64,000 nucleotides of DNA from contig CAWDVE010000021.1 in the NCBI GenBank assembly GCA_963805625.1, forward strand, positions 338,024 to 402,023, given 5' to 3'. Below are positions 1 through 17,634 of this stretch, one piece after another (the stretch's first letter is position 1; each line of letters starts with the position of its first letter). The notes beneath the pieces are model-generated. The model worked only from the letters and a program-made list of their open reading frames with translations. It was not told where the DNA came from and did no database searches. The DNA comes from an uncultured Candidatus Rokubacteria bacterium (GTDB lineage: Bacteria > Methylomirabilota > Methylomirabilia > Rokubacteriales > DASRDR01). The translations under genes were made by a program, and so were the position numbers.

Positions 1-711
1 GCCGAGCGCCGCGGCGGACCAGCGCGATCGGTCCAACCCGCGGTCCCCGCGAAGCGAGAGGCGTCGCGCGTACGGGTAGACGCGCCCGCGCAGGTCGAGC
101 ACGGCGTACTCGTCCGAGTAGTACGTCGCCCCCGCCCGGACCAGGTCTGCGACGAGCCTGCTCTTGCCGCTCATGCTGGGTCCGGGCAGGAGGATCGCCC
201 GCCCGCGCCAGCCCACAACGCCGGCATGCACGAAGACGCGCCGCGGCGCTCGCTCGGCGACGTAGAGTTGGAGGTCGGACTCGAGGCTGTCAAGGATGCC
301 TTCCAGGGTCCGGTCCCGGGTCACGGGCGCCGTGTCACCCCAGAGGCGATGCCACCCCTCGCGGCGCGGCACGACCAGCGAGTACAGGCGATCGACGATC
401 CGCGCGTCGGCCAGGCGCCAGCCGGGCGGTAGCCGGTCGCGCAGCGACGCCAAGACCGACAGTTCGTTCGCACGGACCCCGATCCGCAGCCCGTAGGCCG
501 TGATGGCGAAACCCAGCCGACACGCGGGCGGCCCCCAGCGTCCCGAACGTGGAGTCCCGGGCTTCGGGGCGACGCAGAGATCCTTGAGCCCGCGGCCGAT
601 ACGGGGAAGCTCCGCGGCCAGGCAGACGATCGAGGCGAACCCCCTGCCCTGGCGGACGGCAAGGCAGGGTCCGGAACACGATGCCGGCGCAGGCGCCGGC
701 TGACCCCTCAC
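1..711 (-). CDS. HPr kinase-related (HprK-like) P-loop kinase, 3' end off-window
   Basis: Not in ORF track. Manual translation is open from GTG 711 (GTGA overlap with the upstream stop): ...LESDLQLYVAERAPRRVFVHAGVVGWRGRAILLPGPSMSGKSRLVADLVRAGATYYSDEYAVLD... (HAG motif, Walker A GxSxSGKS, SDE motif). Confidence 0.8.
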   Translation of the reverse strand, partial: MRGQPAPAPASCSGPCLAVRQGRGFASIVCLAAELPRIGRGLKDLCVAPKPGTPRSGRWGPPACRLGFAITAYGLRIGVRANELSVLASLRDRLPPGWRLADARIVDRLYSLVVPRREGWHRLWGDTAPVTRDRTLEGILDSLESDLQLYVAERAPRRVFVHAGVVGWRGRAILLPGPSMSGKSRLVADLVRAGATYYSDEYAVLDLRGRVYPYARRLSLRGDRGLDRSRWSAAALG

Positions 712-2264
712 GTCCCTGGCGGGTGGGCCCGCGGGCTCTCGATGATCGGCGCGACGCCGGCCAGCGCGAGGACGTTCCGCGCCCCGATTCCGATCGTCGA
801 GGCGACCCGGCCCTCAGCGTCTATCAGCACGGCCGACGGCGTTGCGCGGGCCTCGAAGACCTTGCTCACCTTCAAGCCCTCGTCGAGGACGACGGTCGAG
901 CGGAAGCCCAGAGCGCGGTTTGCCTCGACCGATCCCGAGGAGACCACGAGCAGACGGGGGGCGCCGCGGGGGGGCTCGGCCTCCCACCGGTGAAGATCCT
1001 CGGCCATCCGCTGGCAATACGAGCAGTCCGGATGCCAGAAGACGAGAAGGGTGTCCCGTCCGCGGTAGTTGCGGAGGTCGATCATCCGGTTGTCGAGGTC
1101 GGGAAGCGTGAATGGCGGCGCGAGCTGGCCGGGGCGGGGCGGCCCTCCGGCCAGCACCGGCAGCGATCCGTGGCTCTCCCGGCCGTTCGTCCGCGCCGGG
1201 AACGGGGCACCAGGTGAGGCGACGGCGTGGGCAACAAGGGCGCGGATGGCAGCGTCCCCGAAGACGACCGGGCCTGCGATCCGCCCGGTTCGCCCGATGA
1301 GGACCGCGCCGGGAGTCCACTGGGCGCCGTAGGCGTCGGCAACTTCACTCCGCGCCTGGAGGAGCATGGCCTCGGACGACATCCCACCGAACTTTGTCCG
1401 GTTCTCGTCGGTACTCCCGGTCGTGACCAGCGCCAGCGTGAACGCCTCCGCGTGCTCGCGCTGCCAGCGGGCGATCTCGGGCGCGAGGGCAGTGCAGGGA
1501 TCACAGGCCGGCCCCACGAAGAGAAGCAGGACCGGCCGGCCAAGTCCAAGGAGGGTGCCGAGCGAGCGTGTCTCACCGTCGCCAGCGGGCAGGGAGAAGG
1601 CCGGCGCCAGCGCGCCCACCGGGAGGGCACCCACCGTGAGGCCCGTGTCGAGTTGTCTGCCCTCACTGGGCGCGCCGATTCCCTGTTCCACCCGTGCCTC
1701 GATCGCGTCGAGCCGGGTCAGGACCCGCGCCTGCTGGATGAGCAGGCGCAGCACCATCCCGACGACCGTGCCAAGAACCGCCAGCGCGGCGAGGCCCAGG
1801 ACGGCCAGGGTGCGCTCGGCGGGCGGCAGCGCACCGAGCCAGCCCACGACGCTCAGCCCGGAGTCGTTCCATCCGGCACCGACAACGAACACGGCCAGCG
1901 CGCCAAGAACAACGTTCCGGAGCAAGGTCGGCCAGCCCACTGGGGCCGAGCGCAGCTGGCCAAAGCAGCGGCACTCGGGCCGCTGGCCCCGCGCGAGACT
2001 CAGCGCAATGGCGATCGTGAACGCCACGAGAAGGCCGAGGGCCCCGAGCCCACCCCACCACGCGGAGGTGCGCGGAACAAGGGCGGTGGCGACAGACAGC
2101 TCTGCGGCCGGGAGAGCCACCGCGAGGGGTCCCACGAGCCAGGCGGGCAACCCGAATCCGGCAAGGCCCTCGCGGGCGCCGGTCCGGTCCAGGAGCTTGG
2201 TGACGCCGGCAACCGTGAACACGCCGGCGAGCGCGAGTCGGGCACTGAGGAGGACCGCGTCCAT
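708..2264 (-). CDS. MauE/DoxX membrane domain fused to two TlpA/MauD-like thioredoxin domains
   Basis: N-terminal TM helices with CRCFG (MauE-type); APAFSLP...LLFVGPACDPC and APPFTLPDL...FWHPDCSYC CxxC domains. Confidence 0.85.
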   Translation of the reverse strand: MDAVLLSARLALAGVFTVAGVTKLLDRTGAREGLAGFGLPAWLVGPLAVALPAAELSVATALVPRTSAWWGGLGALGLLVAFTIAIALSLARGQRPECRCFGQLRSAPVGWPTLLRNVVLGALAVFVVGAGWNDSGLSVVGWLGALPPAERTLAVLGLAALAVLGTVVGMVLRLLIQQARVLTRLDAIEARVEQGIGAPSEGRQLDTGLTVGALPVGALAPAFSLPAGDGETRSLGTLLGLGRPVLLLFVGPACDPCTALAPEIARWQREHAEAFTLALVTTGSTDENRTKFGGMSSEAMLLQARSEVADAYGAQWTPGAVLIGRTGRIAGPVVFGDAAIRALVAHAVASPGAPFPARTNGRESHGSLPVLAGGPPRPGQLAPPFTLPDLDNRMIDLRNYRGRDTLLVFWHPDCSYCQRMAEDLHRWEAEPPRGAPRLLVVSSGSVEANRALGFRSTVVLDEGLKVSKVFEARATPSAVLIDAEGRVASTIGIGARNVLALAGVAPIIESPRAHPPGT

Positions 2265-2412
2265 CTGGGACTCTACCTCACACCGATTCCGCTGGGCGCA
2301 AGACCGGGGACCTCTGGCGCGTGGGTGTGACGCAGGGCCTGCCGGGGGACCGGAGCCGCCGATCCCCCGGCCCCCTCAACCCGCTGCCGCTGACCGAACT
2401 CGAGCAGCGCTC

Positions 2413-3126
2413 CTAGCGGCTGCCGACCGTTGGCACTCCCGGCGCTGGCAGCGCGGAACCGGCGCCGCCGGGGCACGGTCCTACACACACACCGGCGGCA
2501 CCACAGCAGGTGTTCACGACGCAGGCCTGGCCGGATGGGCAGCCTGCACTCGCGGTGCACGCCGTGAGGCCTGCGCAGGGCGTCGCCCCGTCAACGCAGA
2601 ATCCCGACCCCTCGGAGGTCGTGGCGCACACGCAAGTTCCCCCGGGACCGCACGTCTGGAAGTTCGTGCAGGTTCTCCCTGCGCAGGCCGCCGTGGTCTG
2701 CGCCGCCGCGGGATGGGGCGCGACCACCGAGGTGACGGCGGGGAGGATCAGGGCTCCGGCGGCCACGCTCAGCCCCAACCGCGCTAGCACCTGCCGCCGG
2801 GACACCGCCCGCTGCATCGGCAGCCGCTCCTGGAGCAGCTGTGCCCGGTCCAGCTCGGCGAGGGCGAGCCACACGACCTCCTCGTTGGCCCCGGGCAGCT
2901 CCGGCTGGAGCCGACTCGTGAGCTCCTGGACGCTCGCCCGCCCGTCGCATTCCCGCCACACGAGGAGGGCAGGGCGATTTAGCGCGTGCGCCCGGTGCTG
3001 ATCGAGATCGTAGACCAGCACTTCGTCGGCCACGTCGCGGATGACCAACCCCTCATGTCGGGCCTGCGGTCGGAACGCCGCAGCCGACACCCACCCCCCT
3101 TGCGCCTCGGGTCTCCGTTGCTCCAT
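2413..3126 (-). CDS. PqqD/RRE domain fused to a Tat-like signal and a 14-Cys C-terminal peptide
   Basis: VIRDVADEVLVYDLDQHRAHALNRPALLVWRECDG...LAELDRAQLL (PqqD family); SRRQVL + hydrophobic stretch + AAA|Q; Cys/Thr-rich tail; GGAGG RBS before ATG 3126. Confidence 0.8.
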   Translation of the reverse strand: MEQRRPEAQGGWVSAAAFRPQARHEGLVIRDVADEVLVYDLDQHRAHALNRPALLVWRECDGRASVQELTSRLQPELPGANEEVVWLALAELDRAQLLQERLPMQRAVSRRQVLARLGLSVAAGALILPAVTSVVAPHPAAAQTTAACAGRTCTNFQTCGPGGTCVCATTSEGSGFCVDGATPCAGLTACTASAGCPSGQACVVNTCCGAAGVCVGPCPGGAGSALPAPGVPTVGSR

Positions 3127-3406
3127 CGTCGGCCCCTCCACTTTCGAGTCGGGTTGGCTAGTGGTCGACAAACGCTACCCTTCCTATCACGCGCTCAGGC
3201 CTCAGGTCAACATCTGAAACATCTCTCCGTTGGGCGCTGACGCGTCTGCCCGCGACCCCACGGCCTGCGGATCCGGAGTGTGGCCGTGCGGGAAGGTCGG
3301 GGAAGGGGGCGCGAGTGCTTGAACTTTCTTCTTGCTTTGAGTTCTTCCCTCCTTTTGGGCTCTGCTCTCATCTGAGCAGCTCACGCCAGACGGGCATGAG
3401 CTACTC

Positions 3407-3712
3407 GTCGCGGACCGGCTGAGCGAGGACGAGGTCGCCGAGCGTGCCGGCACCACGGTCGAACGGATCCGGGAGCACGTGTGCCTCGGGCTCCTCGCGC
3501 GCGAGGCCGGCGGGCTCGCCCGCCGTGACGTCATGCGCGCTCGCGTGGTCGCCGAGCTTGAGCGCAAGGGCATCGAGGTCGGCGCGCTCGCCGCTGCGAT
3601 CGCGACTGGCGAGCTCACGCTCGGGTACCTCGAGAGCGCCGGCCGGAGGACACCGCGCTCGGATCGCCCGTTCGAGCAGCTCGCGGCGGAGATGGGGATC
3701 GCGTTCGAAACC
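3407..3712 (+). pseudogene. Remnant of MerR-like N-terminal regulatory region of an adenylate/guanylate cyclase
   Basis: VADRLSEDEVAERAGTTVERIRE...RRDVMRARVVAELERKGI...FEQLAAEMGI; no good start and no catalytic domain follows. Confidence 0.45.
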
Positions 3713-3876
3713 CCGGCATCGAGGCGGTCGCCATCGCAGACCTCACTGGGTACAGTCCCTCGAAGGGTTGGTTGGAGAAATTGGCTTTCGTTAGTCCTTC
3801 TGGATTCCCAGGGGGCGGGTCCCGACGTGACCTGGAGACGGACGCCCAGCGCCGCGCTCAACCTTGGCCCGGCTGC

Positions 3877-7571: not shown

Positions 7572-8903
7572 TCAGCCGTAGATGCGCTGCAACTGATCGG
7601 CTCCCCACTTGATCGCCCCGGCGGCGTCGCTGCTCTGCACCGCGCGGGCGAAGGTATCGACCACGATGTACTTCGACCAGGCGAGCGACGCCTTCTCGTT
7701 CGAGGGGCCTGCGTAACCCTGGTCACGGCCGTACTTGGGCTGCTCCCTGAAGGGCGCCATCTTGACGTCCTTCTCCCACATCGGGTCGGTGTCGTACTTC
7801 ACGACGTGCGGCAGATGGTAGCCTTCCTGGAGCCGCCACCATTCGTCGTACTTCTCGGCGAACCACCACTTGAGGAACTCCTTCGCCGCCTCGACGTTCT
7901 TCGAGTTCTTGAGGATGGCGAAGGTGCGACTGCCGAGCAAGTAGAACCGCCCGGCGGTGCCCTTGGGGATCAGCATGTGGTGGGTGTCCTGGGCGATGTC
8001 CGGCTTGTCCTTCTTGGCCGCGAAGTAGATGCTCGAGCCGTTGTAGGTGCTGGAGATCTGGCCCGACAGATACGCGCGGTTGTTGTTGCTGTCGTCCCAG
8101 GAGGTGCCGGTCTCGTCGTAACCGTCCTTCCACGCCTGGATGAAGCGCTTCATGCCCTCGACGAACTCGGGCTTGTTGAACAGGATATTCTTCTGGTCTT
8201 TGTCCACCTCCATCGCGCCGGTGCTCCACATGTACGGGTAGCAGAATCCCGGCGGATCCCCGGTGCTGTGGCCGAGCGCCTGACCAAAAGGCTTGCCCTT
8301 GGTCTTCAGCGTCTTGGCCACCGCGAAGTACTGCTCCCAGGTCATGTCAATCTTGCGGCCATCATCCGCGTTGGCGACTCCGGCTTCCTTGAACATGCTG
8401 ATCCGGTAGGCCATGGACGCGTTGGACTGTCCGGACGGAATCCCGAGGTACCGGCCAGCGACCCTGGCCGAGTTCAGAACATAGGCCTGATAGCCGCCAC
8501 CGCGCTTGCCGACCTCCTCGGCGAGGTCGGTAACGTCCACCAGGTGGTCGCGATACAGCCAGTTCCACGATGGCCACAACTCGACGATGTCGACGCCGCC
8601 GGCCTGCACTGCCGCCGCGATCTTGGGCTGCAGGTCCGGCCAGTTGAGGAAGTCCGTGTTGATTGTCGCCCCGGCCGCCTGGGCGAACTCCTGGGCCTGA
8701 CGCTTGTAGAGGTCCTGGGCGGGAGCGATGAAATACGTACCCTGAAGGATAGCGAGCTTGGCGCCCCTGGCGCCCGTTGGCGCCTGCGCGCGGACCGGGC
8801 GGGGCCCGAGGCCCACGCTTGCCGCACCGAGCCCGGTCAGACCAGCGGTCTTGAGGAATCGCCGGCGATTCACGCGACGGTTCGTCCACCTGGTGTCCGA
8901 CAT
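7572..8903 (-). CDS. ABC solute-binding protein with Tat signal (carbohydrate class)
   Basis: NRRRFLK Tat motif, VRA|Q cleavage site, GQALGH and WDDSNNNRAYLSG motifs. Confidence 0.9.
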   Translation of the reverse strand: MSDTRWTNRRVNRRRFLKTAGLTGLGAASVGLGPRPVRAQAPTGARGAKLAILQGTYFIAPAQDLYKRQAQEFAQAAGATINTDFLNWPDLQPKIAAAVQAGGVDIVELWPSWNWLYRDHLVDVTDLAEEVGKRGGGYQAYVLNSARVAGRYLGIPSGQSNASMAYRISMFKEAGVANADDGRKIDMTWEQYFAVAKTLKTKGKPFGQALGHSTGDPPGFCYPYMWSTGAMEVDKDQKNILFNKPEFVEGMKRFIQAWKDGYDETGTSWDDSNNNRAYLSGQISSTYNGSSIYFAAKKDKPDIAQDTHHMLIPKGTAGRFYLLGSRTFAILKNSKNVEAAKEFLKWWFAEKYDEWWRLQEGYHLPHVVKYDTDPMWEKDVKMAPFREQPKYGRDQGYAGPSNEKASLAWSKYIVVDTFARAVQSSDAAGAIKWGADQLQRIYG

Positions 8904-9088
8904 TCAGCACCCTCCTCGATATCAGCTGCGAAACCGCCTTGCCGGCGTTCGGCACACGACGTACCACGTCATGAGGCTCGGGCACCTCCTCCCTCGGCTG
9001 CGGGTCAGCGAGCGGCCCCGCCGGCTTTCGGAGTCCTGCGTCGCTGGCAGCGGTACGGTTTAGAGGAAGACCTCCCGTTTCAAGGCCT

Positions 9089-9104
9089 ATCAAGTCGCGT
9101 GCCA
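9089..9104 (-). promoter_or_regulatory. Possible sigma-54 -24/-12 promoter for the ABC operon
   Basis: Minus strand TGGCAC-GCGAC-TTGAT vs consensus TGGCAC-N5-TTGC(A/T). Confidence 0.4.
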
Positions 9105-9564
9105 GGGAGGGAGCCCGGGAACTCCCGCGAGGTCCCTGGCGCTTGGGCATGGCTGGTCGCCGTCGCTGGGACAGTGGTGGGACAGCGAGGCGCCGACGCC
9201 ACACCAGGAGGGTGCCCTCTGCCGATCGCCACCGTGATGACTGCGGCCCACCGAGCCGCATCAGCCAGGACGACTCCGCGGCCTAGATGTCAGGAGGTTG
9301 TTCACGAGCCTCGCCCGGGAGGCTGGTAGTTCCCCGTATCGGTGGCAAGTCCAGCAACGGATCACGGTTCTGGGAACGTGGAGGACCACGGCATGGCGGC
9401 GGCGGGTCGCCACCGCGGGGTTAGCGCGAAGACTGTTCGGCGCCGGCGGGACCGCTGGCAGGCCGGCGGGGTGCCCGGCCTCGTGCCCCGCGCGGAGCTA
9501 GCGCGGCGTCAGACCCAGAATGGTAAGCGCAACTCGGCGGTGAACCCCGAGGAGTAGGTGGGAG

Positions 9565-9755
9565 CGAGGCGGTCGCCTGGCGGGTATCGACCGAGACCTC
9601 CTGGCGACGCCCGGTGCGCAATTCCCACAGATCGGAGACGGCGAGGCCGATTACCGCGAGCGCCGCGGCACTGGTCTCGCCGATGCGGAACGGCGTCGGC
9701 GTCGGCAATATTGGATCGGTGCCACCAGTGATCCCGACCGTGCGGGCGCGGGCGG
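9565..9755 (-). pseudogene. N-terminal remnant of CaiB/BaiF family III CoA-transferase
   Basis: ITGGTDPILPTPTPFRIGETSAAALAVIGLAVSDLWELRTGRRQEVSVDTRQATASL, then similarity ends abruptly. Confidence 0.6.
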
Positions 9756-9987
9756 GGGAGGGGCTCCTCGAGGATCCGCACGACGTTGCCGCTCAGAACG
9801 GTCATCCCGCCTGCCATGAGCCTCTCGAAGCTCCGCACGTGGCGGAGGCGTGATGTCCAGCCGAGCGCATCGAGGGGGCAGCCGCACGCACGCTCGTCCA
9901 GCCGGAGGTCGCGGAAGAGCCGCGCGGGTACGCCGGTCGCCCGGGGTGGGCCCGCTGCTGGAGGCCTGATCGATGGACGTGCCACCC

Positions 9988-10902
9988 TCAGGGTGTTTTC
10001 GCGGTCTCCGGAGGACTAGCGGCGCGAAGCGTGAATGATTCCATCGACACCGTGATCTCTCCCGTCGCCGCATTGTGACGGAGGCAGGAGGCAGTCGGAT
10101 AGAATCCGCTGATCGCCACTGCCTTCGGTGACTTTATGGGGAAACACGACTGGGGCTTGCTCAGCAAGACCGCCCGACTCACCATCTCCTCGTAGAAGAT
10201 AACCCTGCCCCCGTAGACCCCGAAGATCCAGCTTCGTGTGAAGGGCTGCTTGTTGAACTCCGGACCGGTGACATCGATGAGATGGTTGCCCATCGCGGGG
10301 ACGACGGCGTCGACATCGCGAAAGTCGGGAGGCAGGTAGTTCGAGGGCACCGGCTGTTTCGCGACCTCGAACTGGTCGCAGCGGACGAATTCCGGCCCGC
10401 AAGGGCCCGACTCGAGCGCGAAGACGTTGGCGATCGGCTCGATGTAGAAGTGAACGTCGAAGTGCGGGACGTCATAGATACCGGGCGGAATATGCCCCGC
10501 CGGATTCCAGTTCAAGAGCACCCACTTGAACGGGACGTCCCCTCGCCTGGCCACCGCGTCCGGCAGGGGGATGACGTGTTCGTAGGTGGCGATGCACTCG
10601 GTCGCGTGATCGACCGTCCCGTCCTTGTTGCGGTCGAAGCAGTGATGGAGGTCCGAGCCGTCCGTGGGCAACCCGTCCAATGCGGCGGGCCCGAACACCA
10701 CGCCGATCGCCGTGGGCTCACCCTGGCGATTCAGCTCGGCATAGCTCGTCACGGTCCCCTTGCCGAGCTCCATCTGCCCTCCCAAGTGGCGGGCTGCAGG
10801 CGCGTCAGAGCCCCGGCCGAGGAGCGCGCACCCGATCAGGATCATCGTGACCAGTGGGACAACTGACAGAGACGTCCACCGTGCCATGCGGTCCTCCTCC
10901 AT
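9988..10902 (-). CDS. DUF5602-like lipoprotein
   Basis: Lipobox-like LIGC; WNPAGH, YDVPHFDVHFY, VPAMGNH, FYEEMVS motifs. Confidence 0.65.
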   Translation of the reverse strand: MEEDRMARWTSLSVVPLVTMILIGCALLGRGSDAPAARHLGGQMELGKGTVTSYAELNRQGEPTAIGVVFGPAALDGLPTDGSDLHHCFDRNKDGTVDHATECIATYEHVIPLPDAVARRGDVPFKWVLLNWNPAGHIPPGIYDVPHFDVHFYIEPIANVFALESGPCGPEFVRCDQFEVAKQPVPSNYLPPDFRDVDAVVPAMGNHLIDVTGPEFNKQPFTRSWIFGVYGGRVIFYEEMVSRAVLLSKPQSCFPIKSPKAVAISGFYPTASCLRHNAATGEITVSMESFTLRAASPPETAKTP

Positions 10903-11009
10903 GTGTCAGGCGAATCGGGGCCAAGGCGCCCCGGAGGCTATCGATAAGAACGAGATAGCAGGCTCCTGAGACTAGTGTCGAGGCTCGACCCGGTTCAGGG
11001 TGATGTTCC

Positions 11010-11085
11010 TAGGCGCGGCCCCAGTGCCGCCTCCGCCTTCTTCAGCCAGAAGGTCATGCCCATCCCGCGGTACGTCGCCGTTATC
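11010..11085 (-). pseudogene. C-terminal scrap of an adenylate cyclase/AAA-TPR type protein
   Basis: ITATYRGMGMTFWLKKAEAAL resembles the 'YREMGMTFWLEQAEAEL' C-terminus of such proteins. Confidence 0.4.
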
Positions 11086-11791
11086 GATGGCCGCGATTCA
11101 TTCCGTCTCCTGCGTGCCGACGGCCTTGTGGATGATATGTCTTGTTCCCAGAGCCCGTGATCCGCCGAGGATTCGCGAGCGCCTTCACCAGGGTGTCCGA
11201 CAGCCAGGCTTGGTACTGGTCCGGCATCCAGCCGCCCTCGCGCACTAGCATCCGATAGACGTCGCGGCTCGTATACATCCACAGGAGGCGCCGGGCTTCG
11301 TCGAGTCCGAGGCGTTTTGCCTCCATCCCCTGGGCGAAGAGGAGTCTCACGCGCTCCTCCTGCATCTCGTAGCGCACTTTCTCGAACTCCTGCTCCAGCT
11401 TCCGGAGCGCAGGCGAGAAGGCCGAGGCGCCGCGGATGAGGCCGAGCTCAGCGGCTTCGCTCTCATAGATGGCTCGCGCCACGTGCGCCGACAGCGCGAC
11501 GAGCCGGACCGGGTCGGTCACTCCCTCGAGCTTCTCCCTCGCGGCCCGGAAGCGCCGGCCGAAGAGAGACGACCGCATCAGCGCGCGCAGGACGCCCTCC
11601 TTGGACTTGTAGAGGGCATAGACCGTGGACCCCGAGACCTCCGCCTTGTCCGCGATCTGCGCGATCGTGACCCGGTCGATGCCATGACGCACGAAGAGCG
11701 CCTTGGCGGCCTTGAGCACCCGATCCTTGGTGGCGTCGGCTGCCCGGCTTCGCCGCTTCGAGACGTATGCTCGCTTGGATCCTCTTGACAT
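11081..11791 (-). CDS. TetR/AcrR family regulator (C-terminus probably extended by loss of the native stop)
   Basis: VLKAAKALFVRHGIDRVTIAQIADKAEVSGSTVYALYKSKEG HTH. Confidence 0.88.
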   Translation of the reverse strand: MSRGSKRAYVSKRRSRAADATKDRVLKAAKALFVRHGIDRVTIAQIADKAEVSGSTVYALYKSKEGVLRALMRSSLFGRRFRAAREKLEGVTDPVRLVALSAHVARAIYESEAAELGLIRGASAFSPALRKLEQEFEKVRYEMQEERVRLLFAQGMEAKRLGLDEARRLLWMYTSRDVYRMLVREGGWMPDQYQAWLSDTLVKALANPRRITGSGNKTYHPQGRRHAGDGMNRGHR

Positions 11792-11811
11792 ATTGGATAT
11801 AGTCTACCACA

Positions 11812-11829
11812 TGCAATACAGATACTGCA
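11812..11829. promoter_or_regulatory. Putative TetR operator in divergent tetR/DUF4287 spacer
   Basis: Imperfect palindrome TGCAaTAcagaTAcTGCA in an AT-rich 50-bp spacer. Confidence 0.4.
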
Positions 11830-11842
11830 GGAGGGTCACCGC

Positions 11843-12105
11843 ATGAGCTTCCAAGCGTACCTCGACAGCATTCGGAAGAGGACGGGGAAGACCCCGCACG
11901 ACTTCTTCGCCCTGGCCAAGAAGAAGGGCCTGGTTGGCCCCGACCTCACCGCCGGACGCCTCGTCGCCGGCTCAAGGACGCCTTCGGCCTCGGCCACGGC
12001 CACGCCATGGCGATCTGGGCAGTCTTCAAGTCGGAAGGCTGGGTCGCCCCCTCGGCCAAACGTGCCCGGGCTGCCGGGCTTGCCAGACCCGCGAGGGTGA
12101 GATGA
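11843..12105 (+). pseudogene. DUF4287 protein with 1-nt frameshift near 11968
   Basis: MSFQAYLDSIRKRTGKTP...LVA/(W)LKDAFGLGHGHAMAIW; the repaired frame ends in an ATGA overlap with the next gene. Confidence 0.7.
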
Positions 12106-12782
12106 CCACGGCCGTCTCGTCTCGATCGACGGTGCTCGAGGACCGGACGGGATGGGCGCCACGCTTCGCGGCCGCGGGAGCCATCGCCGTCGCCCTGATC
12201 ATCTTGGCCTTGCACGCGATCAAGCCCGAATTCGAGCCATCCTGGCGTTTCATCAGTGAGTACGCGATCGGCCGCCATGGCTGGACCATGAGACTCGCCT
12301 TCCTGATCTGGGCCGCCGGTTGCGCGGCGCTGGCGCTCGGCCTGCGGCCGGAGATCAGGGGGCGTCGCGGCAGGACTGGCATCGTCATTCTGCGGACGAC
12401 CGCCATCGCCCTCGTTGCCGCCGGCCTGTTCCTCCAAGACCCGGTCACGGCAACGCCGGAGGAAGCCTCGACGAGCGGCATGCTTCACGCAATCGCGTCG
12501 CTGGTCGGCATCCCGGGCATCCCGTTGGCCGCGATGCTTCTCAGCTCCAGCCTGTGGCGATCGAGCCCGAAATGGGCGCGCCATCGCCTTGCCCTCATGG
12601 GACTCGCCCATGCCACCTGGATCAGTCTCGCGCTGATGGCGGTCTATCTCGCGTGGGCCGTGCCGCGGGCCGGAGGCTTCACGCCCGACGTCTGGGCCGG
12701 CTGGATGAACCGGCTCGTGGTAGCCACCTATCTGGCCTGGCAGCTGGGGATCGCCTATCGCCTCATCGCTCGAGATCGGTGA
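12102..12782 (+). CDS. DUF998 membrane protein
   Basis: FISEYAIGRHGW, GLFLQDP, LHAIAS, GWMNRL motifs; several TM segments. Confidence 0.8.
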   Translation: MTTAVSSRSTVLEDRTGWAPRFAAAGAIAVALIILALHAIKPEFEPSWRFISEYAIGRHGWTMRLAFLIWAAGCAALALGLRPEIRGRRGRTGIVILRTTAIALVAAGLFLQDPVTATPEEASTSGMLHAIASLVGIPGIPLAAMLLSSSLWRSSPKWARHRLALMGLAHATWISLALMAVYLAWAVPRAGGFTPDVWAGWMNRLVVATYLAWQLGIAYRLIARDR

Positions 12783-12850
12783 GGCAGCGGGCGGGGCCAT
12801 GATTCCGTTTCTCGTCGGAGTGGAAGCGATGGAATCGTGGCAAGGAGCCA

Positions 12851-13020
12851 CTAGTGTCCGGAGTCCGAGATCCGATGACAAGAGCGAGCGACACTCGCTA
12901 GGATCTCGTCGGGCTCGCTGAGGAATTCGTCGCGTGCTTCCGGGACCAGGCGGCGCGCAAGCCGCAGAGCCCGGCGGCGAAACTCGTCGGCCGAGGCTTC
13001 GCCGCCAGAGTCGCCGTCAA
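12851..13020. mobile_element. IS630-like end / MITE-like remnant
   Basis: CTAGTGTCCGGAGTCCGAGAT (minus strand reads RISDSGH*, a typical IS630 transposase tail in the terminal IR) followed by GC hairpins; no transposase. Confidence 0.35.
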
Positions 13021-13179
13021 CCCACTGGACCGCTGACGATGTTCGGAGACCGCTGGCGCGGCTGCCCATCGGCTGTAGTGTCGCCGCGCCCGGGTGAAGC
13101 GGACTATGGCCGAGCCGACCGATGGTCTATCCAGCGCCAGGTCTCACCGGGCGCGTTCGTTACTTCGTGGGGCGTTCGC

Positions 13180-13869
13180 TCACCGCAAGCCTGGCGTAGC
13201 GGGATGGGGCGGCGGGGAGAGACCTTCCTCCGGCAGGATCACCACATCGTCACCCTCGAGGCGGAGGGCCCCCTCCACGAAGTAGCGCCGCCGCCAGCCG
13301 ACCCGGCGGTAACCGACGACGCCCAGGTGAAACCAACCCACGGCGGCGGCCCACGCGACGCTCGTGCGGTTCCACGACGCGATGAGGCCGACCAGTCGCC
13401 GCGCGCCGTGACCGCGCACGCTGTCGAGCTTGGCTTGCAGGAGCATCGTTCCGGCGCCTGCGCGCCGGTGGCCCGGGAGCGTCCGGGCCTCGATTGTGAT
13501 GACGTCGCCGGGAGCGCCGCGGAATCGGCGCCCGAGATACGGCAGGTACGCCGCTCCGGCCGCGTCCCACCGGTACGCCGCGACCTCTGGTCCGATCCAG
13601 CACACGAGGCACACCTGCTGCTCGCGCCATCGTCGCCGCACCCCCCGTATTGACATCGCCGGGCAGGCTTGCACGAACGCGATCAGGTCCTTCTCCTGCA
13701 GGACGTCGTAGCGCGCCGCCGGAAGCGCCGCGACGTCTAGGCGCGCATCAATCGCACCGGCGACGACGTGGAACTCCCGCGCGAGGAGCCAGCGGGGCGC
13801 CATCCGCAGACTCCGGCGCAGGCCGAGGTCCCGGACAATGTCGCGAGTGTGGGTCAGACCGGCCCGCAA
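13180..13869 (-). CDS. GNAT-fold hypothetical protein
   Basis: TLPGHRRAGAG (motif A-like), WNRTS (motif B-like). Confidence 0.55.
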   Translation of the reverse strand: MRAGLTHTRDIVRDLGLRRSLRMAPRWLLAREFHVVAGAIDARLDVAALPAARYDVLQEKDLIAFVQACPAMSIRGVRRRWREQQVCLVCWIGPEVAAYRWDAAGAAYLPYLGRRFRGAPGDVITIEARTLPGHRRAGAGTMLLQAKLDSVRGHGARRLVGLIASWNRTSVAWAAAVGWFHLGVVGYRRVGWRRRYFVEGALRLEGDDVVILPEEGLSPPPHPATPGLR

Positions 13870-14529: not shown

Positions 14530-14988
14530 TCATGGGTCGAGGTACACGATCTCGCCCCGCACGCCCGAGCCGCGGATGGTCAGGAACCCCATCGCAATCG
14601 GCAGCGTGAAGCGCCGGGGGCCAATGCTGCCGGGATTCATGAACAGGATGCCTCCCTGCTTCACGAGCGACGGCTTGTGGGAGTGCCCGGCGATGACGGC
14701 GTCGATGGCCGCCGCCTGCGGGTCGACCGCGAGGGACTTGACGTCGTGGAGGATGTGGAGCCGGACCTTCCCGGCCACCAAGACCGCCGTCTCGGGCAGC
14801 GCGAGCGCCCACGGACCCCGGTCGTTGTTCCCGCGCACGGCCGTGACGGGCGCCACCGCCGCGAGGGCGCGGAGTACGTCCGGACTGCCGATGTCGCCCG
14901 CGTGCACGATCCGATCGACGCCGCGAAGTCGCCGGAGGGCCTCGGGACGGAGGAGCCCATGCGTGTCGGCGACGACCCCGATCCGCAT
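14530..14988 (-). CDS. YfcE-type metallophosphoesterase
   Basis: DTH, HAGD, VRGNND, GHSH, NPGS motifs. Confidence 0.9.
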   Translation of the reverse strand: MRIGVVADTHGLLRPEALRRLRGVDRIVHAGDIGSPDVLRALAAVAPVTAVRGNNDRGPWALALPETAVLVAGKVRLHILHDVKSLAVDPQAAAIDAVIAGHSHKPSLVKQGGILFMNPGSIGPRRFTLPIAMGFLTIRGSGVRGEIVYLDP

Positions 14989-15033
14989 CTGGGTTGGCAT
15001 CGACCGAGCCTGAGCCCGGGCCAACGCCGCCGC

Positions 15034-15385
15034 TCAGCGGTCCGGGGCGAGGTCGGCTTCGAGGGCGCGGCGCTGCTCGGGCGTCAAGGCCGTCTCGGCG
15101 GCGATCGCCGGGAGGTCGATCCCGAGCGCGACGGGGACGCGGCTCCCGACGGCGAACTTCAGGTACTGCACCGAGGAGACTCGCTCCGTCCCGACTTGCG
15201 GGGGTCGAACGTGGGCCGGACGCGCGTGCCGTCCTCGAGGCGAGCGTAGACGTGGTGCGGGAGATCCAGCCACTCGCGGAGCTTCATGGCCCGCACCGCC
15301 GGGTCGTCGATCTCGATGAGGAGGGTGGCGCCGAGCTCGCCCGGGCCGCCCAGGAGCTCGTTGTGCGTCTCAACCTCGTGGAGGT
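15034..15385 (-). pseudogene. 5'-truncated, frameshifted DUF3501 protein
   Basis: HEVETHNELLGGPGELGATLLIEIDD...PTFDP / QVGTERVSSVQYLKF...LTPEQRRALEADL; frameshift near 15200. Confidence 0.7.
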
Positions 15386-15468
15386 CTCAGCCTCGACGTG
15401 GTCCGGGATGACCCGATGCCACATCGAGGCTGTTCGGTTACGAGACCCCTAGGGCCTATCCTCCGGGA

Positions 15469-17634
<2,166 letters not shown>

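Follow-up and report, generated by a model that had tools for sequence, protein, structure and literature searches.

MauE and MauD mature MauA, the small subunit of methylamine dehydrogenase, and for the HPr-rel-A cassettes (TIGR04352/TIGR04353) we know of no assigned substrate. Two characterised systems that make ribosomally produced peptides with post-translational modifications (RiPPs) are closer to the locus described here, namely the linear polyphosphorylated peptides (LPP; LppA/K/B/S/D/N; PMC13381572) and the phosphorylated lasso peptides paeninodin and pseudomycoidin (PMC8498205). LPP has a discrete RiPP recognition element (RRE), an SpI-like peptidase and an MsbA-like exporter and is confined to Bacillota by the paper; its leaders follow the consensus YxxPxVLxHQxIxFETxxS, in which LppK polyphosphorylates the last Ser (S3), 15 residues after the Pro (PMC13381572). 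The window analysed here is a 64,000-nucleotide stretch of an uncultured Candidatus Rokubacteria bacterium (assembly GCA_963805625.1, contig CAWDVE010000021.1; G000:C21:338024-402023). At its left end it encodes a Cys-rich precursor protein fused to an RRE, a fusion of MauE with two thioredoxin domains (MauE-Trx-Trx) and an HprK-related kinase. An extended locus (L001) adds 16 kb leftward, so that a window position is the L001 position minus 16000.

The conserved unit to which the precursor belongs consists of the kinase, the RRE-precursor and a PF14907 nucleotidyltransferase, with MauE-Trx as an add-on. A GTDB scan, in which the best 80 of 144 confirmed stretches gave 75 loci, nearly all from Acidobacteriota, found the kinase at 59 loci, the nucleotidyltransferase at 63, both at 53, either at 69 and neither at 6. 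These enzymes lie within 700 bp of the precursor in almost all cases, and both are present at 29 of the 41 loci with full flanks. The commonest gene order is kinase, precursor, nucleotidyltransferase, often with adjoining polysaccharide genes, and the precursor is usually the gene that adjoins both enzymes. The link between kinase and precursor proposed in the first-pass annotation is therefore borne out, whereas its conserved trio of precursor, MauE-Trx and kinase is not, the nucleotidyltransferase taking the place of MauE-Trx. MauE-Trx, present at 5 of the 75 loci, was ruled out as a core gene of the cassette. Of the further genes that might lie left of the window, the nucleotidyltransferase is there (PF14907, 82.7 bits, E 4e-23, with an intact KG..R..DxD motif), in convergent orientation, and a dedicated peptidase or transporter was not found. 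A profile search of 1.84 billion cluster representatives returned at least 2,350 clusters (50% identity) at E <=1e-30 and 6,179 at E <=1e-10, the weaker counts possibly including stand-alone RREs. Of 201 genomes from the window's own phylum, 25 have a match, a count that includes G000, G080 and some RRE-only matches; a metagenome scan using a single precursor as query gave no match.

Taking the gene content, fold, motif conservation and co-occurrence as directly observed, we infer that the locus probably encodes an LPP-like RiPP that is phosphorylated in the cytoplasm, exported by the twin-arginine translocation (Tat) system, cut by the housekeeping signal peptidase and then disulfide-bonded. 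In models of low confidence, the leader would dock on the RRE of the same protein through [VIL]xxPx[VI], which adds a beta strand to the RRE sheet. As in LPP, Thr144, two residues into the core, would be (poly)phosphorylated by the HprK-like kinase, and the nucleotidyltransferase may then activate or extend the phosphate to give a nucleotidyl or sugar-phosphate link. The modified core is predicted to be exported by Tat and cut by signal peptidase I after A142, with the RRE and leader staying on the cytoplasmic side. MauE-Trx-Trx, presumably a separate module recruited for large cores, would finally form and sort the seven disulfides. A bolder version, which we hold to be tentative and on balance unlikely, makes this a one-gene secretion and display cassette for cystine-knot miniproteins: the RRE would mask the Tat signal until core position +2 is phosphorylated, as an export checkpoint, and a phosphodiester made by the nucleotidyltransferase would anchor thousands of hypervariable, disulfide-rich miniproteins in soil bacteria, with capsule or exopolysaccharide as the attachment point.

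The precursor matches Pfam PqqD (PF05402) at 23.5 bits against a cut-off of 23.4, and 14 Cys follow its leader, in line with the RRE-fused 14-Cys precursor first proposed. In an AlphaFold2 model built on a 101-row alignment, residues 21-100 reach a predicted local distance difference test (pLDDT) above 90 and fold into a three-strand sheet and three helices, the winged helix-turn-helix of lasso B1 and PqqD proteins. The PqqD-like fold claimed for the N-terminal domain was recovered by VIA-align, with 6jx3_B, which we take to be TfuB1, as best match (Z 8.7, root-mean-square deviation 2.4, 82 residues aligned). The top Foldseek match was TbiB1 (TM 0.72-0.73 by target length), with an E of 3.2e-3 that, like all the others, stayed above 0.001. 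When solved structures were searched by sequence, only weak PqqD and HprK entries came up, and the nucleotidyltransferase had no match. Mean pairwise identities are 0.54 for the RRE, 0.49 for the leader and 0.18 for non-Cys core positions, with R110, R111 and P137 invariant across 101 sequences.

Leader residues 131-135 form a strand in the model and retain it in a model without the core (pLDDT about 57), where the strand would have to pair with the RRE sheet, its sole possible partner. With the NisB-NisA entry 4wd9_A, the alignment of either model extends to chain residue 1020; the last residue of NisB is 993 (PMC7667030), and the overlaid segment beyond it is therefore read as the bound NisA leader. 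On this modelling, the leader strand of the precursor would sit in the canonical RRE groove. Mean-field covariation between RRE and leader (effective depth 73) gave no clear contact pattern and was treated as noise, and a complex prediction of precursor residues 15-155 with the kinase and the nucleotidyltransferase returned no answer and is evidence neither way.

A core-only search found a split version of the precursor, P0170, which lacks the RRE, carries an N-terminal twin-Arg leader with WxxPxI and shares the window's 14-Cys core at 49% identity. In its family of 32 members, one of them labelled Acidimicrobiales, RR, W, P, I and S are invariant, as is a Ser directly behind the A-A-A-x stretch (32/32). 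Among 36 split metagenome loci, many only 1-3 kb long, 13 have a kinase match, 9 a separate RRE and 7 a nucleotidyltransferase; at one (L156), PqqD and PF14907 were confirmed by Pfam, and polysaccharide genes again lie near. The W kept in the split version and lost in the fused form may reflect that a tethered leader needs no high affinity. At L146-L154, RRE-less precursors with window-type cores of 14-18 Cys stand alone, some amid phage-like or insertion sequence-rich DNA, which suggests mobile precursors modified in trans.

The candidate phospho-site was located by position counts in a genomic set (101 sequences, 4 unparsed, leaving 97) and a cluster-representative set (150, 6 unparsed, leaving 144). 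Ser or Thr stands at Pro+15 in 72/97 and 131/144, compared with about 10% at Pro+14; the 144 have 78 Ser and 53 Thr, and the window has Thr. The first-pass annotation had envisaged phosphorylation or another modification of a Thr/Ser-rich miniprotein. The window's core does hold 19 Ser/Thr in 95 residues, and phosphorylation itself stays in the proposal, but conservation and the analogy with LPP point to a single conserved Ser/Thr where the core begins as the likely site, not to general Thr/Ser richness. The kinase that would act on the window's precursor contains the HAG (His), Walker A and SDE motifs, and its best NCBIfam match is TIGR04352 (E 1.8e-14, 53.5-54.6 bits, cut-off 200), the most widely matched NCBIfam model, which all 60 of 60 family kinases match.

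Twin Arg is invariant in 101/101 precursors, and a TatFind-type pattern occurs in 87/97 and 132/144 relatives. The window's precursor has S-R-R-x-hydrophobic-hydrophobic, an uncharged stretch and a cleavage motif. TatC is encoded in its own genome and in 5/5 other genomes tested, and a single signal peptidase I gene (PF10502) lies elsewhere in its own genome. A crude motif test found an ABC ATPase at 3/75 loci, and another, which can miss divergent enzymes, found a signal peptidase at 1/125, a housekeeping LepB; no MsbA-like ABC exporter is among the genes flanking the window's locus. If Tat and the housekeeping signal peptidase I serve the cassette, this would explain why it is not accompanied by a peptidase or ABC transporter of its own.

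The core is free of Trp and rich in Cys. For Cys parity, one over-long frame and two Cys-free cores were also excluded from each set, leaving 94 and 141; the count is even in 92/94 genomic precursors and 140/141 cluster representatives, six being commonest. Together with the Tat-type signal, these even counts support, at the level of sequence, the export and disulfide logic first proposed. Knottin-like C-C-CC-C-C spacing occurs in 46/97 and 64/144. Pfam UPF0506/Conotoxin_I2 matches were found in two relatives, below cut-off, and UPF0506 on 19% of one Atlas cluster; an Atlas search with core residues 144-225 gave no usable match, and full-length fold searches were dominated by the RRE and barely probed the core. 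At L046, L062, L069, L075 and L080, 12-Cys cores are built from a tandem pair of knottin-like units, and MauE-Trx is absent from the vicinity; four of these loci have the kinase on the opposite strand. RRE-leader proteins with short 0-1-Cys cores and an adjoining kinase match were seen in same-genus genomes (L026, L028, L029, L030), which shows that this type of leader also occurs without a disulfide core, and P0005 carries a larger passenger behind its RRE-leader (323 aa in all).

The MauE/thioredoxin fusion was described correctly at the outset: MauE (PF07291) scores 93.5 bits against a cut-off of 27 and is followed by two thioredoxin-like (redoxin) domains. The window's protein has the motifs CRC, CDPC and CSYC, and CxCFG plus two CxxC motifs are kept in 6/6 cassette loci. 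MauE-Trx is present at 6/15 loci with cores of at least 10 Cys and at 0/67 with fewer, a count that omits 7 loci (RRE-only, Cys-poor or over-long); the nominal Fisher p of 1e-5 is an overstatement, as on a quick tree three changes of the label are required and a single origin is possible. The fusion was matched in 4/201 genomes of the window's own phylum. In two of the other three it lies directly upstream of the gene for a twin-Arg-type protein that lacks an RRE, has 26 or 16 Cys and comes without a kinase match, one of these two copies being Trx-Trx without the MauE part; the third lies on a 2-kb contig beside a different neighbour. We read the cassette, and MauE-Trx with a Tat-type Cys-rich client, as two modules merged at the window's locus.

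A second RRE-precursor in the genome, with 8 Cys, lies at G000:C2:12931-13453 (L142 815-1337, minus strand); divergent upstream of it is a frameshifted, internally deleted MauE-Trx remnant (C2 13605-14090, plus strand) and downstream a transposase-like fragment. Several MauE-bearing cassettes hold extra genes (L037 8642-10445 and 12852-14258, L068 8713-9612, L099 8414-9784, L048 5738-7051), among them a sulfotransferase (Pfam), a FliB-like Cys-cluster protein (weak match) and oxygenase- or cupin-looking genes without Pfam matches, which possibly provide further tailoring.

Several points weigh against the LPP-like pathway. In the fused form the RR motif lies about 110 residues from the N-terminus; Tat can tolerate long N-terminal extensions. 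TIGR01409 matches 14/101 members at E <=0.05, the window's protein not among them, and the strict A-x-A pattern is found only in 76/97 and 93/144. The leader strand reaches a pLDDT of only about 57-66, and fused leaders carry V/I/L/A at Pro-3 and so lack the Y/W of YxxP. The six GTDB loci with neither enzyme hold orphan precursors, as do 5/13 loci from relatives, and the nucleotidyltransferase at the window's locus is convergent, not co-directional. The correlation of MauE with Cys number comes from about 3 lineages, with one origin possible. Most of the split loci that have all the genes are close to identical, their kinases being 62-95% alike, and for the split loci whose core is of the 14-Cys type (L146-L154) none of the contigs showed a kinase. 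In LPP itself, LppN had no visible effect or activity and LppK did not phosphorylate an S3T variant, the window's site being Thr (PMC13381572). Finally, a second Ser/Thr, at Pro+4, is better conserved than Pro+15 (94/97 and 136/144).

This last residue, mostly Ser and Ser133 in the window, could itself be the target of the kinase, acting as a checkpoint for export or cleavage while the secreted core bears no phosphate. A Ser is invariant in the split family too, and LppK is Ser-specific (PMC13381572). We nevertheless consider this reading doubtful: Pro+4 lies in the strand modelled as RRE-bound, where packing could account for its conservation, export should be blocked by a phosphate placed within the hydrophobic stretch, and the conserved Ser/Thr on the core side would be left without explanation. 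It is similarly doubtful that the two enzymes serve surface-polysaccharide synthesis by supplying an activated sugar or small molecule, with the RRE protein exported as an unmodified disulfide protein that is no more than a neighbour at the locus. Glycosyltransferase, epimerase, Wzc, Wza and Wzy_C genes do recur near the cassette (7 to 31 of 89 loci), as they do near the split version, and the genome has other kinase/PF14907 pairs; on the other side, the closest characterised pairs act on peptides (PMC8498205, PMC13381572), the precursor usually adjoins both enzymes, and no polysaccharide genes flank the window's own locus.

We judge it improbable that the twin-Arg segment is merely a RiPP leader or membrane anchor and that the core stays cytoplasmic or membrane-bound, its Cys binding metal. 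The internal position of the signal behind a folded domain, the weak Tat profile matches and the missing exporter would fit such a protein, but near-perfect even Cys parity, the frequent knottin-like spacing, the link to MauE-Trx and the N-terminal placement of the same leader in the RRE-less family all speak against it. A Tat lipoprotein lipidated on the first core Cys, which directly follows A-A-S/T in about half of the family (Pro+16 in 46/97), is very improbable, since with one Cys lipidated the number remaining would be odd in almost every member, and the window's first Cys stands at Pro+19 after TAA, without a canonical lipobox.

The coordinates of the locus are given in Table 1. The first-pass annotation was right that the three window genes are co-directional, all on the minus strand, that a GTGA overlap (711-708) couples the fusion's stop to the kinase's start, and that the kinase runs off the window edge. 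GTG 711 is the sole ATG/GTG/TTG start upstream of the kinase's conserved part, and loci L037 and L099 show the same end-to-start coupling.

Table 1. Features of the precursor locus (window positions unless marked L001)
Feature	Position	Strand	Remarks
Precursor gene	2413..3126	-	ATG 3126 to stop 2413, 237 aa, GGAGG upstream
RRE/PqqD domain, residues 18-100	2827..3075	-	pLDDT >90; structural matches to lasso B1
Internal leader, residues 109-142	2701..2802	-	SRR followed by hydrophobic residues and P129-x-V-x-S133-x-x-x-P137; A-x-A with putative cut after A142
Thr144 at leader Pro+15 (putative core position +2)	2695..2697	-	predicted phospho-acceptor
Core, 95 aa, 14 Cys	2416..2700	-	last six Cys with knottin-like spacing
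GC hairpin, 13 bp, no U-tract, 3' of precursor stop	2341..2371	-	shuffle test, weak
MauE - MauD-like thioredoxin - thioredoxin fusion, 518 aa	708..2264	-	putative disulfide-forming enzyme of the membrane; accessory
HprK-related kinase, first 237 of 329 aa inside window	1..711	-	whole gene L001 16711-15722
PF14907 nucleotidyltransferase, wholly left of window	L001 about 14587-15663	+	start uncertain, ATG 14458 also possible

An assembly artefact at the locus was ruled out: contigs from two public DNA runs, the best of which may be the source sample, cover it piecewise, and the contig of a different strain (run X2, L001 16079-17027) spans the thioredoxin-kinase junction gap-free. In RNA run X16, a 785-base contig of a related strain spans the precursor gene (window 2337-3120), the other genes being represented by short pieces only; these contigs come from one study and carry no information on strand, level or ends, so no statement on expression is made. 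A promoter and terminator scan found no site for the three-gene unit. The hairpin 3' of the precursor (z -1.76 over 51 nt, with 7/200 shuffles equally good) is possibly, on weak evidence, a transcript-stabilising element; the whole precursor-MauE spacer folds no better than shuffles (z -0.16).

Upstream of the precursor, a truncated MerR/HTH-like frame with weak Pfam matches only (window 3397-3794, plus strand) is probably a gene remnant. Left of the window, L001 encodes a pair of FG-GAP repeat proteins that look secreted, one of which has a subtilase S8 domain (8742-13431), and farther left a DUF2846 fragment and a Toprim/AAA_25 primase-helicase, a stretch that suggests a mobile region and is not conserved with the cassette. 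Elsewhere in the genome, G000:C13:238-241 kb, C17:258-263 kb and C24:97-100 kb hold more cassettes with a kinase, a PF14907 gene or both; a discrete RRE is present in two of them, and no precursor was identified. A separate RiPP-like cluster (G000:C12:71538-77560) combines a PF14907 gene, an RRE match, a kinase match and several similar genes, ferritin-like in look (family guessed), with a short YxxP-type precursor (about 73320-73463) ending in a Cys/Trp-rich tail.

Compared with methylamine utilization, the window shares a MauE domain above cut-off, a MauD-like thioredoxin and a Tat-type disulfide-rich client, but has them as a single MauE-Trx-Trx fusion that scores 53.8 bits against 188.6 for TIGR02661. 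A methylamine dehydrogenase client was ruled out, as the Trp-free core cannot form tryptophan tryptophylquinone; a PF02975 search of the genome gave no match, as did its control. With HPr-rel-A the locus shares a kinase family match and a PqqD-family partner. However, the kinase lies far below the curated cut-off (54.6 vs 200 bits), TIGR04353 is not matched by the window's protein and only weakly by 51/101, and the PqqD part is fused to leader and core. The B1-type RRE as best fold match (6jx3, 5v1u) and the kinase and nucleotidyltransferase pair recall the phosphorylated lasso peptides (PMC8498205), but no cyclase or B2 protease is present among the recurrent cassette neighbours or in L001, and the conserved C-terminal Ser is missing (2/101). 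By these tests, the system belongs neither to the lasso peptides nor to HPr-rel-A or methylamine dehydrogenase. It resembles the inhibitor-cystine-knot miniproteins UPF0506 and Conotoxin_I2 in its C-C-CC-C-C spacing (about 45% of relatives and the window's last six Cys) and differs in being bacterial, RRE-fused and predicted to be phosphorylated.

The first-pass annotation knew of no characterised system with this combination; it had not named LPP, which comes closest. LPP shares the RRE, the HprK-like kinase and the nucleoside triphosphate transferase, a conserved leader before a variable core, a Pro-x-V/I motif whose Pro is followed 15 residues later by the acceptor (a predicted one in the window), cleavage of the signal-peptidase type, likewise predicted here, and a frequent polysaccharide-locus context (PMC13381572). 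In contrast to LPP, the RRE is fused in frame to the window's precursor and is discrete only in split relatives, the leader is of twin-Arg type without an MsbA-like exporter or dedicated LppS, the fused form lacks the Y/W, and the core is Cys-rich with an even count and an optional MauE-Trx; most members of the family come from Acidobacteriota and from the phylum of the window. The system would work like LPP, yet is no member of it, as it differs in the discrete RRE, the dedicated peptidase, the exporter and YxxP. A term search of the LPP supplements returned no MauE, twin-arginine or Pyrinomonad, and Acidobacter at 19 places of one file (PMC13381572). RRE-Finder lists other RRE fusions (PMC7470986), and in the literature searched, with subscription papers and bioRxiv supplements outside its scope, no paper describes a twin-arginine precursor that carries its RRE as a fusion.

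This type of precursor recurs in thousands of unstudied proteins, and the window's locus illustrates how a module of MauE-Trx and a Tat-type Cys-rich client merges with the cassette. If the proposed pathway is correct, it would name a substrate for orphan HPr-rel-type kinase/PqqD/PF14907 cassettes, offer a three-gene test system for the PF14907 reaction, which the LPP work left open, provide a large bacterial source of knottin-like scaffolds, and represent RiPP tailoring plugged into Tat and signal peptidase I in place of dedicated exporters. The enzymes are of a kind known from LPP and the phosphorylated lasso peptides, while the architecture appears to be undescribed, combining a cis-fused RRE, a twin-Arg signal that would double as RRE-binding leader and a disulfide-rich core.

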